Source: an uncultured bacterium (GTDB lineage Bacteria > Verrucomicrobiota > Verrucomicrobiia > Limisphaerales > UBA11358). Taken from it: a DNA stretch of 64,000 nt. The stretch's first letter is position 1, and each line of letters begins with the position of its first letter. This document shows, piece after piece, positions 13,422 to 27,315 of the stretch. The DNA is taken from contig CAVRPQ010000005.1 in assembly GCA_963723125.1 (NCBI GenBank), forward strand, positions 174,717-238,716. Reading direction: 5' to 3'. The position numbers and the translations under genes are program-made. The notes under the pieces were generated by a model. It ran no database searches, was not told the DNA's origin, and worked only from the letters and a program-made list of their open reading frames with translations.

Positions 13422-14591
13422 ATGGTGAACTTGCAATCGGCAAACACTGCAACTCCCGCCGACCTGGGTTACCGGATGCCCGCAGAATGGGAACCCCATG
13501 AAGCCACCTGGCTCGCTTGGCCGCACAATGCCAGTGACTGGCATGGCAAATTCGCGGCCATTCCCTGGGTCTATGGCGAATTGGTGCGAAAAATTTCCGC
13601 CGCCGAAATTGTCCGCATTCTTGTCCGCCACAAAGCCGAGGAAAATGCCGCGCGCCAGATTCTCGCGCGGGTCGGCTGCAATTTGAAGAAAATCCGGTTT
13701 GTTGTGCACCCGACGAATCGGAGCTGGACGCGCGATAGCGGCCCGATTTTTGTGAAAAAAGGTAGGGCGGGCAGTCCTCTGCCCGCCGACGGACGGCGCG
13801 CACGGAGTGACGCGCCCTACCCGAAATCGGAAACCGCCATCGTTCATTTCCATTTCAACGGCTGGGCCAGGTACGACAATTGGCGCCAGGACACAAAAGT
13901 TCCCGAAACCGCCGCGCGCGTTTTGCGAAAACCGTTGTTTCACGCGAAATGCCAGGCAGCTGACTCAATCCGCAATCCGCAATCCGCAATCCGCAATTTC
14001 ACGATTGAGGGCGGCGGCATCGAGTTGAACGGGCGTGGGACGCTGCTCTCGACGAAGCAATGTTACCTCGATCCCAGAGTCCAGGTCCGCAACCCCGGCC
14101 TCGGCAAAAAGGAAATCGAAGCAACGCTGAAAAATTATCTTGGCGTCCGGAACGTCTTTTGGCTGGCTAAAGGCCCGGTCGGCGACGACACACATGGACA
14201 CATTGACGACATCTGCCGCTTCGTTAATCCCAGGACACTCGCGCTCGTGCGCGAAAAAAATTCAAAAGACGTGAATTACCGCCCGCTCGCCGAAAACTGG
14301 GAGCGCATCCGTGAGTTACGGCTCGAAGATGGCACGAAACCCGAATTGGTGCCGCTGCCCATGCCCACACCGCTTTATTTTAACGGCCGGCGTTTACCCG
14401 CCAGCTATGCGAATTTCTACATCTGCAACGCCGCTGTCATCGTGCCGACGTTTAACGATCCCAACGACCGTGTCGCGCTGGGCATTCTTGGTGAGTTGTT
14501 CAAAGACCGGCCGGTCGTGGGCATTCACGCGGTGGACTTGGTTCTCGGTCGCGGCACGTTACATTGTTTGACGCAGCAGCAGCCGTTATAG
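13422..14591 (+). CDS. aguA: Agmatine deiminase / peptidylarginine deiminase family protein
   Basis: MPAEWEPH, WTRDSGP, FNGW, EGGGI, DDTHGHIDD, ASYANF and LHCLTQQQP motifs. Contains two in-frame repeat insertions. Confidence 0.88.
   Translation: MVNLQSANTATPADLGYRMPAEWEPHEATWLAWPHNASDWHGKFAAIPWVYGELVRKISAAEIVRILVRHKAEENAARQILARVGCNLKKIRFVVHPTNRSWTRDSGPIFVKKGRAGSPLPADGRRARSDAPYPKSETAIVHFHFNGWARYDNWRQDTKVPETAARVLRKPLFHAKCQAADSIRNPQSAIRNFTIEGGGIELNGRGTLLSTKQCYLDPRVQVRNPGLGKKEIEATLKNYLGVRNVFWLAKGPVGDDTHGHIDDICRFVNPRTLALVREKNSKDVNYRPLAENWERIRELRLEDGTKPELVPLPMPTPLYFNGRRLPASYANFYICNAAVIVPTFNDPNDRVALGILGELFKDRPVVGIHAVDLVLGRGTLHCLTQQQPL
13761..13821. repeat. GTAG-type REP doublet (REPIN-like) inside the aguA coding sequence
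   Basis: Terminal inverted repeat GGTAGGGCG / CGCCCTACC with two internal hairpins (GGCGGGCAG-tcct-CTGCCCGCC and GGCGCG...CGCGCC). Translated as GRAGSPLPADGRRARSDAPY. Confidence 0.8.
13966..13997 (+). repeat. Tandem heptamer array (CAATCCG)x4 in frame in aguA
   Basis: Seen directly. Encodes SIRNPQSAIRN. Confidence 0.9.
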
Positions 14592-14595
14592 TTGT

Positions 14596-14747
14596 GGTAG
14601 CACCCGCGTCCCGCGGGTGAAATTCGGCGTCCCGCCGAATTTTTGCCGGGCGCTCTGCTGCCAACAAACGCTTGGCATTCCAACCCTGCGCGCCTCGATG
14701 GTTTCCGGCGCGACGCCGGAAACAACCGGCCAGAGGCCTGTGCTACC
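14596..14747. repeat. Intergenic REP-doublet/MITE-like palindromic element
   Basis: GGTAGCAC ... GTGCTACC termini. Internal hairpins CACCCGCG/CGCGGGTG, AATTCGGCG/CGCCGAATT and GTTTCCGGCG/CGCCGGAAAC. Confidence 0.75.
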
Positions 14748-14759
14748 CACAGCTCCCAA

Positions 14760-14831
14760 ATCTTGTTTGACGTGGAGAATGGTGTTATCGTGATCCGCAG
14801 AATCGGCAATCGAAAAGATGTATATGACTAA
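14760..14831 (+). pseudogene. C-terminal remnant of a RelE/StbE-type toxin
   Basis: ILFDVENGVIVIRRIGNRKDVYD* matches the RelE C-terminus pattern (IGHRKDVY). The N-terminal portion is missing and the palindromic element occupies its place. Confidence 0.7.
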
Positions 14832-15009
14832 AACCGCGCAACAAACCGTTGTTCGCTCCATCTCCCGCAAGCGTGAGCAAATCGCCACGCTGCGCGAAGA
14901 ATTGGAAGACTTGAACGACTATCTCGATTTGGTCGAAGCCCGCGTGCGCGACGCCGGCAAACCGCGTCTTACCCACGCCGAAGTCAAAAAACGCTACGGC
15001 TTGAAATAA
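14824..15009 (+). CDS. Small putative antitoxin (61 aa)
   Basis: Overlaps the toxin remnant's 3' end. Has an acidic helix LREELEDLNDYLDL and ends RLTHAEVKKRYGL, a pattern typical of RelE-partner antitoxins. Confidence 0.6.
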   Translation: MTKTAQQTVVRSISRKREQIATLREELEDLNDYLDLVEARVRDAGKPRLTHAEVKKRYGLK

Positions 15010-15016
15010 CTTTGCT

Positions 15017-15067
15017 GGCTTCGGTTCGCTGCACTGCCTTACGCAGCAACAGCCGGCGGAGGGTTGA
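15017..15067 (+). pseudogene. Orphan duplicate of the aguA 3' end
   Basis: Encodes GFGSLHCLTQQQPAEG*, versus GRGTLHCLTQQQPL* at 14547-14591 (11/13 aa, 27/39 nt identical). Confidence 0.85.
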
Positions 15068-15140
15068 ACAACCAAGCAACGCGGAAACATAGGCATTTGA
15101 CCTTCGTCGCTTCGTTTCCGGGTCGCTCAAGAGAAATGGT

Positions 15141-15749
15141 TCAATTCACCGGCGCGGCCTTGACGGTCCCGGCAAAATCCGGTTCCGCTGCGTATTTTTT
15201 CAGATCCACAAAACCCTGCGGGCCAAACAGCTCATGCTGAATAATGCCGTTGCGATCAATGAACATCGTTACCGGAATTGCATCCACGTCCTGATACGGT
15301 GACGGCACATTTTGCAGGATGGTGAGCGGATAATTGATGCCTTGCCGCTGCGCGAAAGCCTTCTGCGACGCCATGTCTTCCGTGCTGATGCCGATGATCA
15401 TAACGTTTGTAGGCGAGGTGACGCTGCGCAATTTGATGAAATCCGGAATCTCGTCCAGACACGGCGGACACCACGTTGCCCAAAAATTCAATACGACCCG
15501 TTTGCCTTTCAAATCAGCCAGATGAATGGCCTGGCCATCGAGATTGGTCACGGAAAAATCTGGTGCGCGGACGCCTTGCCACGCCAAGAGGGCTTTTTGC
15601 TCGGGATCAAGCGGCGTTGGGGAAAAATAATAAAACGCCTCGACCGCAAGCAGCGCCAACACAACGGCCAGCAGGCTCAGGATCCAACGAAGCTTTCGCA
15701 CCAATCCCGATGGTGAATTGACGGCAGGAGCTTTGGTTTCGTCGGCCAT
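15141..15749 (-). CDS. TlpA/ResA-family membrane-anchored thiol-disulfide oxidoreductase
   Basis: N-terminal TM segment, APDF, NFWATWCPPC and IPVTMFID motifs. Confidence 0.88.
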   Translation of the reverse strand: MADETKAPAVNSPSGLVRKLRWILSLLAVVLALLAVEAFYYFSPTPLDPEQKALLAWQGVRAPDFSVTNLDGQAIHLADLKGKRVVLNFWATWCPPCLDEIPDFIKLRSVTSPTNVMIIGISTEDMASQKAFAQRQGINYPLTILQNVPSPYQDVDAIPVTMFIDRNGIIQHELFGPQGFVDLKKYAAEPDFAGTVKAAPVN

Positions 15750-26181: not shown

Positions 26182-26691
26182 TTATCTTTGGTCCCCGGTT
26201 GAATACTTTTTCCAAATCAACCGGAAGGCACTTGCGAAATCTTGCGGACGCCCGGCAACCCAACGCGTAACCGCTTCCGGCGCAAGCCACTCGCCACGCT
26301 CGATTTCGCCGGGATGTAATTGAAAAGGCCCTTCCGCCTGGCAGCGATAAACCCAGACGAATTCCTGGCCTGTTTCCGCGCAAGCGTCAATCTTGAACAA
26401 ACGTTCCGGAGTTTTTGGGACAATCAATCCAATTTCCTCGTGCAACTCGCGCACCGCACAGGCATCGTAATCCTCTCCCGAATCCACGTGGCCGGACGAC
26501 GAGGAATCCCATTTGCCCGGTTCGCGGTCCTTGGTCATCGAACGTTTCTGGAGAAAAACCACGCCGCGTGAGTTGAACACCAGCACATGAATGGCGCGGT
26601 GCAGCAATCCAAGCCGATGAACTTCGCCGCGTGGCTTATGATCAATCACCTCGTCGCGCACGTTGACGACATCGAAGATTTCTTCAGCCAT
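26182..26691 (-). CDS. NUDIX hydrolase (Idi/YfcD-like)
   Basis: Nudix box GHVDSGEDYDACAVRELHEEIG, with LLHRAIH and LQKRS. Confidence 0.88.
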   Translation of the reverse strand: MAEEIFDVVNVRDEVIDHKPRGEVHRLGLLHRAIHVLVFNSRGVVFLQKRSMTKDREPGKWDSSSSGHVDSGEDYDACAVRELHEEIGLIVPKTPERLFKIDACAETGQEFVWVYRCQAEGPFQLHPGEIERGEWLAPEAVTRWVAGRPQDFASAFRLIWKKYSTGDQR

Positions 26692-26700
26692 GAAGGAGAT

Positions 26701-27030
26701 TTACGGCCAATCGTCGCCGTGTTGGAGTTGATCCAATTTCGTGGCGCGAAATGCCGCGATAAAATCCTTGATGAATTCATCCTGCGGCTTTTGCGGCAAT
26801 CTTACGCGAAGTAATTTGAATCCGGCCGGGGCTTTGCTTTTACGAACATTATTTGCAAAACCGACATCACGCGTGAAACAAACATCGAAATTCTGAAGCG
26901 CGAATCGGTAAATTTTCCCATTATCCAGTCCTTGCATCCGCAATGTGTGAACCGACTCGACCTCGTGGCCTTCGGCACGCAAGGCAGCGACGAGTTTGCG
27001 CGGAAGATTCTCGTCGAGCAGAATTTTCAC
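26701..27030 (-). CDS. DUF5615 family PIN-like putative toxin
   Basis: MKILLDENLP, GLDN and TRDVGF motifs. GTG start overlaps the DUF433 stop. Confidence 0.82.
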   Translation of the reverse strand: MKILLDENLPRKLVAALRAEGHEVESVHTLRMQGLDNGKIYRFALQNFDVCFTRDVGFANNVRKSKAPAGFKLLRVRLPQKPQDEFIKDFIAAFRATKLDQLQHGDDWP

Positions 27031-27236
27031 GCCGGTTGCAATTCTTTTTGATGCGCCAGTTCAGCCAGCGCGCCGCGCACGGATTCCTCGGTGAGGCTCG
27101 GATAAGCGTCCGCGATTTCGGCGACGGACATGCCGGCGGCGAGCGACTCCAAAATGAGCGCCACGGAAATGCGCGTGCCGCGCACACGCGGGCTTCCGCC
27201 CAAATGTTCCGTGTCGGCGACAATCCATTTCTTCAT
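27027..27236 (-). CDS. DUF433 family putative antitoxin
   Basis: GGSPRVRGTRISV...GMSVAEIADAYPSLT signature. Confidence 0.88.
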   Translation of the reverse strand: MKKWIVADTEHLGGSPRVRGTRISVALILESLAAGMSVAEIADAYPSLTEESVRGALAELAHQKELQPA

Positions 27237-27267
27237 GCAATCAAATTATTTGCTGTTGCGGAATAAA

Positions 27268-27315
27268 TCAAGCTGCGTCGCGCGCGTTGACGACATCAAA
27301 AATTTCTTCGCTCAT
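27268..27315 (-). pseudogene. Orphan duplicate of the NUDIX gene 5' end
   Basis: Encodes MSEEIFDVVNARDAA*, versus MAEEIFDVVNVRDEV at 26691 (34/40 nt identical). Has an ATGA overlap with the upstream ORF. Confidence 0.85.

Follow-up and report, generated by a model that had tools for sequence, protein, structure and literature searches.

The gene considered here is aguA, which codes for a protein of the agmatine deiminase family and lies in a 64,000-nucleotide stretch of the genome of an uncultured verrucomicrobial bacterium (Limisphaerales, UBA11358; contig CAVRPQ010000005.1, positions 174,717 to 238,716 of the forward strand). We refer to this whole stretch as the window and count positions in it unless another contig is named. 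Behind aguA there is a small cassette with the remains of a toxin-antitoxin (TA) pair, and behind the cassette there is a second, untranslated version of the aguA 3' end, hereafter the orphan. The genome of the window is designated G000, other G numbers stand for related genomes, and the set included 163 genomes of the genus.

The working aguA gene (13422..14591, + strand) encodes 389 aa and matches PF04371 with E=2.4e-108, residues 18-388 being aligned to profile positions 1-321 of 321. The match reaches the last profile position, and the protein has the full-length PF04371 domain (agmatine deiminase / PAD_porph). Orthologues are present in 35 of 41 related genomes. The working C-terminus, GRGTLHCLTQQQPL followed by the stop codon, forms the upstream copy of the duplicated end (14547..14591, + strand), as delimited by the repeat and by sequence comparison. 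It retains the HC motif, whose Cys we take to be the catalytic nucleophile of agmatine deiminases.

The orphan (15017..15067, + strand) reads GFGSLHCLTQQQPAEG up to its own stop codon, in a frame with a stop 5 codons upstream and no start codon. As the initial annotation had stated, it agrees with the working end at 27/39 nt over 13 codons; the count is 29/45 nt over the longer span and 11/14 for residues. A repeat search returned a direct repeat of 34 nt with 74% identity (14552-14585 vs 15022-15055), and the longest exact run common to both copies is 8 nt. For a chance expectation, the last 14 residues of every open reading frame (ORF) of at least 120 aa in the genome were scanned against the 3 kb downstream, with reversed peptides as a control. 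The control reached a maximum of 9/14 genome-wide (2 hits at 9), compared with 11/14 for aguA. A contig from a public short-read run (X2, possibly the source sample) covers 14460-15198 with 0 differences, contigs from three further public runs tile the region with breaks only within the repeat arm, and the same layout in G155 is independent support against an assembly artefact.

The interval between the two copies measures 425 nt. It opens with a non-coding, multi-copy hairpin element with terminal inverted repeats (14593..14752, no strand assigned), similar to miniature inverted-repeat transposable elements (MITEs) or repetitive extragenic palindromic (REP) sequences. The arms (14596-14637 and 14706-14747) are 42 nt long and 71% complementary, and as single-stranded DNA the element folds with an energy of -49.3 kcal/mol (z=-5.8). 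Besides this element, the genome has 5 near-full-length copies and numerous arm fragments, with 33 high-scoring segment pairs (HSPs) in all; in its terminal inverted repeats, high copy number and lack of coding capacity the element agrees with the MITE/REP type. An open frame (14643-14831) runs from the right half of the element into the next feature, the 3' remnant of a RelE/ParE-superfamily toxin gene (14757..14831, + strand; 24 codons and a stop), which was identified by a tblastn match to an intact toxin of G116.

The RelE-like nature of this piece, proposed in the initial annotation, is borne out by that match: positions 14757-14828 correspond to residues 62-85 of the 85-aa G116 toxin, with 92% identity. 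The G116 toxin itself matches PF05016 (ParE_toxin; E=1.5e-8, 35.5 bits vs a cut-off of 23) and the RelE3 structure 3bpq_B in PDB (E=2.4e-5). The window piece has no Pfam match of its own and falls short of the full PF05016 domain (~85-90 residues); judging by its sequence, it is a remnant and not a working RelE/ParE member. The point of truncation is identical in G000, G155 and G074. Between G000 and G155, the proportions of synonymous (pS) and non-synonymous (pN) differences in the 24 remnant codons are 0.19 and 0.02, which is odd for a dead fragment; the remnant may be kept for translational coupling of the antitoxin.

The following ORF (14824..15009, + strand, 61 aa) is intact. Its ATG overlaps the toxin stop (ATGACTAA), with an alternative ATG at 14818. 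Since this ORF stands 3' of a near-full-length toxin, with the ATGA overlap, in about 20 of 30 fetched related loci, we consider it to be the cognate antitoxin of a module with toxin-first order, which gives substance to the earlier description of it as antitoxin-like. The best profile match is the RelB-like NF048017 (E=2.6e-4, 21.2 bits, below the cut-off of 50); no Pfam family scored above its cut-off and no solved relative was found by sequence. Among G000, G074 and G155, pN is 0.00-0.02 vs pS of 0.16-0.25, values by which the retained antitoxin is under purifying selection. A tblastn search of the genome returned no paralogous toxin for it, the best other match having 26% identity (E=0.004). 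The cassette ends with the junction CTTTGCT (15010..15016, + strand); in G000, G155 and G074 alike the joint reads TAACTTTGC(T/C) followed by GGCTTCG.

The toxin remnant and the antitoxin account for all ORFs between the two gene ends; neither an integrase nor a transposase was found there. Searches of 14400-15250 returned no known RNA family at E<=1 and 0 sigma-70 promoter or intrinsic terminator consensus sequences, and none of the listed public runs containing the region is an RNA dataset.

Ancestry of the orphan and of the aguA tail

Exactly the sequence GFGSLHCLTQQQPA ends 15 of 21 same-genus orthologues, and the residues R, T and the final L of the working end occur in 0/21; the changed residues are absent from all sampled congeners except G074. 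The genome G049 has the gene order of the window (beta-helix gene and aguA, facing convergent redoxin and ileS) and represents an empty site, with a single aguA end lying 18 nt from the redoxin gene and no cassette. In the window, the spacer behind the orphan (15068..15140, no strand assigned) leads to the convergent redoxin / AhpC-TSA family gene (15141..15749, - strand; PF00578, E=2.5e-25), the ancestral downstream neighbour, found at the same position in G049; orphan and spacer together align to the aguA-redoxin junction of that genome. The G049 target is matched at 32/39 nt by the orphan and at 30/39 nt by the working end. The first 60 nt of orphan plus spacer are 87% identical to the working end and downstream DNA of G116.

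The type of difference is more telling than the number. From the working ends of G049 and G155, the orphan differs at 7 and 6 nt, respectively, all synonymous, while the working end of the window differs from that of G049 at 8 nt in residue-changing codons, of which the orphan has none. Decay in place predicts the reverse pattern, which argues that the orphan functioned as a gene end until recently and that the working end is foreign. Overall, genus consensus, empty site and synonymous-only differences support the orphan as the ancestral aguA end and an origin of the working end elsewhere, as the initial annotation had proposed. One argument of that annotation did not survive, namely codon usage as a sign of the donor: codons ending in G/C number 9/14 for the working end and 11/14 for the orphan, compared with 262/390 for the whole gene, and congeners also use CAT TGT TTG.

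The foreign stretch appears to extend beyond the visible repeat. In the nearest relative, G074, the upstream gene is 89% and aguA 80% identical at the protein level. Between G000 and G074, synonymous differences amount to 0.37 for the gene body and 0.28 for control codons 301-340, and rise to 0.69 over the final 40 codons; identity drops from 89-91% to 73-81% toward the aguA end. Codon mismatches become dense from about codon 337 (window ~14430), in a tail with only ~28 synonymous sites, and this is where we place the crossover that the earlier annotation had suggested locating by alignment of relatives. The tail also has its closest neighbours (G091, G022 and G160) outside the clade of the gene body (G074, G155, G049 and G104). 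Given the mismatch step and these neighbours, the replaced stretch (14430..14591, + strand; left limit approximate, deduced from G000/G074 mismatch density) is longer than the 45-nt repeat, and we regard it as moderately supported that the last ~40 codons have a history different from that of the rest of the gene. The step was seen only against the closer G074; a sliding comparison of G000 with G155 revealed none. Across 33 close pairs in the genus (two of them counting G151 twice), the tail diverged more than the body in 20, far more or far less depending on the pair, a variability that would fit repeated exchange of the aguA end.

Two peculiarities in the gene body should be recorded here. 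At 13755-13835 aguA contains an in-frame palindromic insert (about GRAGSPLPADGRRARSDAPYP) absent from G155. Its DNA gives 77 HSPs genome-wide, and its translation matches inside other long open frames, both here and in relatives, as a REP-like element in frame within proteins that recalls the Rickettsia palindromic elements. At 13966-13993 there are four perfect tandem copies of the 7-nt unit CAATCCG, also absent from G155; as one unit gained or lost would shift the frame, the repeat is a possible slipped-strand on/off switch.

Recurrence at aguA and at other gene ends

The event is not private to this genome, as the toxin-less cassette with the same junctions is present in G155 and G074. In G155 the aguA stop is followed, 2 nt further and thus at the identical position, by the same hairpin element, and then by the toxin, truncated where it is in G000, and by the antitoxin, the junction and the orphan, the joint being TAACTTTGCT followed by GGCTTCGG. 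In G074 an IS630-like element and a further TA pair come first, with the same toxin remnant, antitoxin, junction and orphan (the latter with a 1-nt deletion) behind them. The DNA 3' of the orphan is lineage-specific: the redoxin spacer in G000, a short motif that we call 'PQ' in G155, and a repeat element plus ileS in G074. Cassette-free relatives of the respective type have this DNA behind their single aguA end; the 'PQ' motif, for instance, stands directly 3' of the single aguA stop in the cassette-free G013 and G019. Six synonymous and 1 non-synonymous nt separate the orphan of G000 from that of G155; having diverged as coding sequence, the two were orphaned separately. Antitoxin pS is 0.21 (G000-G155), 0.25 (G000-G074) and 0.16 (G074-G155), compared with 0.58, 0.41 and 0.54 for aguA in the same pairs, and on these divergences the cassette is younger than the species. 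Shared junctions, lineage-specific DNA and low antitoxin pS lead us to conclude that the toxin-less cassette entered these lineages separately, after their divergence, each time joining within the aguA end.

The aguA end attracts other cargo as well. An orphan aguA end was found in at least 16 of the 163 genus genomes, nested up to three deep (the tallies include the unpublished G118, on which no claim rests). In G151 there are three orphans in a row, the farthest being the most decayed. Many congeners have a second kind of cassette behind aguA, consisting of a 99-aa ORF without a family match and a PemK/MazF toxin (PF02452, E=7e-7), and 17 of the 30 loci listed for it lie at aguA/ileS. Its orphan junction is TAATTAC joined to GCCGTG in G047, G092 and G093, with a 60-nt repeat starting from codon A369. 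The 5' limits of orphans thus differ by cassette: codon G376 for one, A369 for the other, and others again in G151. The two gene-end copies in G047 show 2 synonymous and 1 non-synonymous difference. In G142 and G104 the MazF-type cassette has no orphan, which is possibly the donor state. We also considered the synonymous divergence (dS) of this cassette as evidence of recent transfer and set it aside, the test giving only a mild, not a clear, excess of low values (12/66 pairs).

Units with a transposase of the REP-associated tyrosine type (RAYT) occupy similar positions. In G023, a RAYT transposase and REP hairpins lie between the working aguA end and the orphan. In G010 (L008, ~560-1450), an IS200-like RAYT transposase with REP hairpins lies between the working end of ileS and an orphan of ~100 nt that adjoins aguA, a mirror-image scar at the convergent neighbour. 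In G127 (L061/L062, C62), 35.7 kb lie between the working aguA end and an orphan that looks intact and stands beside ileS. This interval starts with tRNA-Asp and holds mutL, recBCD-type genes, hisD, fab, purC, uvrC and an integrase of Xer size; in view of the housekeeping genes we rejected it as an integrative island and read it as a rearrangement with a breakpoint exactly at the aguA end.

Several observations concern the 'PQ' motif and the ParE cassette. The motif (~45 nt, TTTTTCTGGACAAAATTTTT..GGGCGCAAAGTCAAAATTG) stands after the aguA stop or after old orphans at the congener loci L004, L026, L033-L036, L040, L066 and L071. The toxin gene starts ~24 nt downstream of it, and in G110, G049 and G139 the motif flanks the ParE cassette on both sides as direct repeats of 48-187 nt; it may be a promoter or an insertion scar. 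A reading of the motif (TTTTTCTGGACAAAATTTTT..GGGCGCAAAGTCAAAA) as a sigma-54 promoter was rejected by eye, the GG-to-GC spacing being one base too long and the GG not conserved, as was an integron attC site, there being no attC-type inverted cores. The genome with the empty aguA site, G049, still has an intact ParE-antitoxin pair on another contig (L065, G049:C154), followed by an apparent decayed copy of the aguA-end orphan, so that the orphan may travel with the cassette.

Duplicated gene termini are not confined to aguA. The initial annotation had pointed to a second case in the window, at a NUDIX gene (26182..27315, - strand), and it proved real: the working gene (26182-26691, - strand) and an orphan NUDIX start, MSEEIFDVVNARDAA followed by a stop codon (27268-27315, - strand), form a direct repeat of 31/34 nt around a DUF5615 PIN-like gene (26701-27030, - strand; PF18480, E=1.3e-14) and a DUF433 gene (27027-27236, - strand; PF04255, E=3e-20). 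A genome-wide scan for orphan termini, covering C-terminal ends (the NUDIX case and the one at C1:413515, both gene starts, were found incidentally), gave 16 further candidates for inspection: 10 with TA-type cargo, 1 at lysS, 3 without tested cargo and 2 tandem paralogues. Nine of the 10 TA-type loci have direct repeats of 29-99 nt with 78-97% identity (at C1:174946, for example, 39 nt and 97%), and at C4:45476 the terminus copies match at the amino-acid level only. The cargo comprises ParE_like, DUF4926, DUF6036, MazE+PIN, DUF2442, ParE+Unstab_antitox, PIN+RHH, DUF4258+DUF2442, RelE+MqsA/HTH, and Fic/Doc with a second pair. The recurrent events in congeners and the further loci in this genome, at least 10 in number, strengthen the earlier suggestion of a general route for TA cassettes.

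In the 10 repeat pairs that were aligned, the stop or start codon marks the limit of the repeat, which ends either there or slightly inside. An upstream copy imported as a coding end with cargo behind it would be expected to give this picture. No k-mer is common to the 11 duplicated segments beyond shuffled controls. At the lysS locus (G000:C6:104350-107500, minus strand), an AT-richer working end is followed by an 85-aa membrane ORF and a GC-richer orphan of 372 nt with in-frame stops; past this orphan there are a spacer and the hairpin element, an ABC-F ATPase gene and a second, nested orphan of 45 nt with the same spacer and element.

A possible route of entry

We infer the recombination pathway, the route by which the DNA entered and the role of the antitoxin, and set them beside what the sequences themselves show: the anatomy of the locus, the ancestry of the orphan, the apparently foreign history of the tail, the recurrence at aguA and at other genes, and the lack of an integrase gene in the insert and of a motif common to the duplicated segments. 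It is probable, in our opinion, that ~590 bp (roughly 14430-15016) were imported and recombined into the aguA 3' end. The import would consist of a replacement aguA tail with its own stop, the hairpin element, the 24 toxin codons and the antitoxin gene, and the recipient's own last 14 codons with the spacer would have been pushed downstream, surviving as the orphan beside their ancestral neighbour. The donor might have been a congener that already had the cassette behind aguA. On the left side, pairing would have gone through the conserved aguA coding sequence. On the right side, the join would have fallen inside the recipient's aguA end, the first time as an illegitimate event (homology-facilitated illegitimate recombination) and in later transfers via the 40-60 nt orphan already carried by the donor cassette; as such an orphan matches the only aguA end of a recipient, it could act as a short arm of homology on the right. 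The cassette would not have to bring a recombinase, and aguA would be preserved as a complete gene, its end with the catalytic HC motif being provided by the imported DNA. By the time it arrived in this lineage, the cassette was probably toxin-less, and its antitoxin may neutralise incoming toxins of the same family.

Several points weigh against such an import, however. The right-hand homology amounts to only ~45 nt with ~80-85% identity, a poor substrate for RecA, and no microhomology could be defined at the first illegitimate joint. The search for competence genes suggested in the initial annotation did find ComEC and DprA (DNA uptake / processing) in the genome, but both are also present in 10 of 14 control genomes, including E. 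coli, and are not diagnostic of natural competence. Ku, which would serve end joining, was not found in a genome that is 92.75% complete. The evidence from the tail comprises 40 codons with ~28 synonymous sites, and the identities to its nearest neighbours (81-83%) are weakly resolved; the result from the 33 pairs shows a decoupled history without a direction. The cassette may once have been present in G049 and have been lost cleanly when the repeats recombined, leaving what looks like an empty site. In G155, the working end in front of this cassette is of the consensus type, which means either that a foreign end is not obligatory in every transfer or that the left crossover differs. Finally, the MazF-type cassette is old in the genus (median pS 0.44 vs 0.60 for aguA, with 12/66 pairs below half), and much of its spread may have been vertical.

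Among the alternatives, a true long target duplication in place survives best, although we regard it as unlikely. Staggered breaks around the last 45 nt of aguA, followed by repair synthesis, would leave two copies that are both native. The outcome would be the same as the one seen here (a direct repeat exceeding 30 bp, one copy at the empty site and no mobility gene) and fits the criteria in the part of PMC2853133 that sets them out; the young cases, with nearly identical copies, also speak for it (C1:174946 and G047). In place, however, the selected copy should not be the one with residue changes, and here it is the working end that has them and the unselected orphan that has none. The tail upstream of the repeat appears foreign in history too, the stop of the repeats at the coding boundary in 10 pairs is not something staggered cuts would predict, and identical junctions followed by lineage-specific DNA need repeated entry.

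A site-specific integration, in which the aguA end is an attachment site and the cassette either a deletion remnant or moved by a recombinase encoded elsewhere, strikes us as quite improbable. The reuse of one gene end, the identical junctions across species, the nested orphans and the substitute end would all fit the logic of attL/attR sites. Against this, no small insert that we examined contains an integrase, and the 35.7-kb interval of G127 is a rearrangement and not an island. Orphan 5' limits vary by cassette (G376, A369 and others in G151), the copies share no exact match beyond 8 nt, and no shared motif was found among the 11 duplicated termini.

That the orphan is the last trace of a decayed tandem aguA duplicate, with only the last codons of a second full copy left, is very hard to maintain: tandem paralogues do yield C-terminal matches in the scan (C7:17193 and C4:229997), but a second copy, full or half, is absent from all of the ~45 genus loci of aguA that we examined, orphans never exceed ~21 codons, the orphan lacks any non-synonymous change, and only one end is present at the empty site of G049. 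A chance resemblance or a chimeric assembly, which the short and only 74% identical repeat might bring to mind, is practically negligible given the control maximum of 9/14 vs 11/14 here (last 14 residues), the contig spanning the arrangement with 0 differences, the tiling by three runs and the same layout in G155.

Relation to known systems and meaning for TA mobility

Insertion with long target duplication was reportedly described for restriction-modification (R-M) gene complexes by Nobusato et al. in 2000. In the sections of Furuta, Abe & Kobayashi (2010; PMC2853133) that define the phenomenon, it is characterised by direct repeats of >30 bp that a related genome has only once, at its empty site, and by an insert below 20 kb with no other gene of a mobile element. 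The same sections relate that the target gene often has its start or stop within the repeats and is left intact, that most cases are from naturally competent species, and that double-strand breakage by the restriction enzyme is suggested as the cause, no mechanism having been tested in them (PMC2853133). Set against those sections, the aguA locus is alike in its addiction-type module, its repeat (>30 bp), the empty site represented by G049 and the 425-nt insert without a mobility gene. Since only the cargo departs from that list, the aguA event works like a long target duplication with a different class of cargo. It is unlike the cases described there in that the cargo consists of TA modules (plus RAYT/REP units) and not of R-M genes, that the upstream copy appears imported and not duplicated from the target, and that the same junctions recur across species with orphans nested up to three. 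A RelE/ParE or MazF module, unlike a restriction enzyme as invoked in those sections, would not supply the breakage in the same way. Our literature search found no report of long target duplication for type II TA modules. The evidence supports the aguA event as a case of a known kind, namely long target duplication, with new cargo and with signs that the upstream copy was imported.

Homology-facilitated illegitimate recombination in natural transformation is said to have been described by de Vries and Wackernagel and by Prudhomme et al., both in 2002. It resembles the route proposed here in that one homologous anchor, a gene common to donor and recipient, brings neighbouring foreign DNA into the chromosome, the other end being joined through a short homology or micro-homology. 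The known cases come from laboratory selections, whereas here we see a natural footprint in uncultured soil bacteria, and the far join falls inside the anchor gene, leaving a duplicate end. Another parallel is the integration of prophage e14 and phage 21 into icd, and of various elements into the 3' ends of tRNA genes, through a tyrosine integrase and a fixed core. There, too, the incoming element brings a slightly different substitute 3' end, and the displaced end becomes a pseudo-end at the far side, but at the loci described here no integrase, fixed core or shared motif was found. The term minimal mobile elements is used for Neisseria in PMC3787668 and PMC1797815. Such elements are variable small cassettes between conserved genes, exchanged by transformation and homologous recombination in the flanks, as may be the case here. 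Their arms are the two neighbouring genes, while at aguA the right arm would be a short, displaced version of the end of the left gene that moves along with the cassette.

It is tempting to go one step further and to suppose, tentatively and with more doubt than confidence, that the TA cassettes and RAYT/REP units of these bacteria are recombinase-free mobile elements with ends borrowed from the host. Such a cassette would travel as a conserved gene end, the cargo and a displaced copy of the same gene end, and with both gene-end copies on board it would have two homology arms in any relative with the conserved gene. Each entry would replace the gene end and leave the previous one behind, so that nested orphans would record successive invasions like tree rings. 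The orphan would then be a part of the element's transfer machinery and not mere debris. In housekeeping genes the most conserved coding motifs, such as the catalytic HC here, would be preferred landing sites owing to the similarity they keep across species.

How chromosomal TA cassettes without a transposase or integrase of their own move has long been unclear, and the aguA locus offers a concrete, testable route: an entry anchored in a conserved neighbour gene, whose end is replaced and whose former end is left as a datable orphan. Such a route would explain why TA cassettes lie exactly at gene termini, why the host gene survives and why the same cassette is found at the same gene across species. 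In uncultured bacteria, recent gains of genes could be found by a simple sequence signature, the orphan gene end. Conserved genes can have mosaic ends, which matters for phylogeny and for the calling of pseudogenes. The retained, selected and toxin-less antitoxin is a candidate 'anti-addiction' gene. Overall, we believe that the value of this locus lies in its unusually complete comparative record, which makes the mobility of TA cassettes testable.

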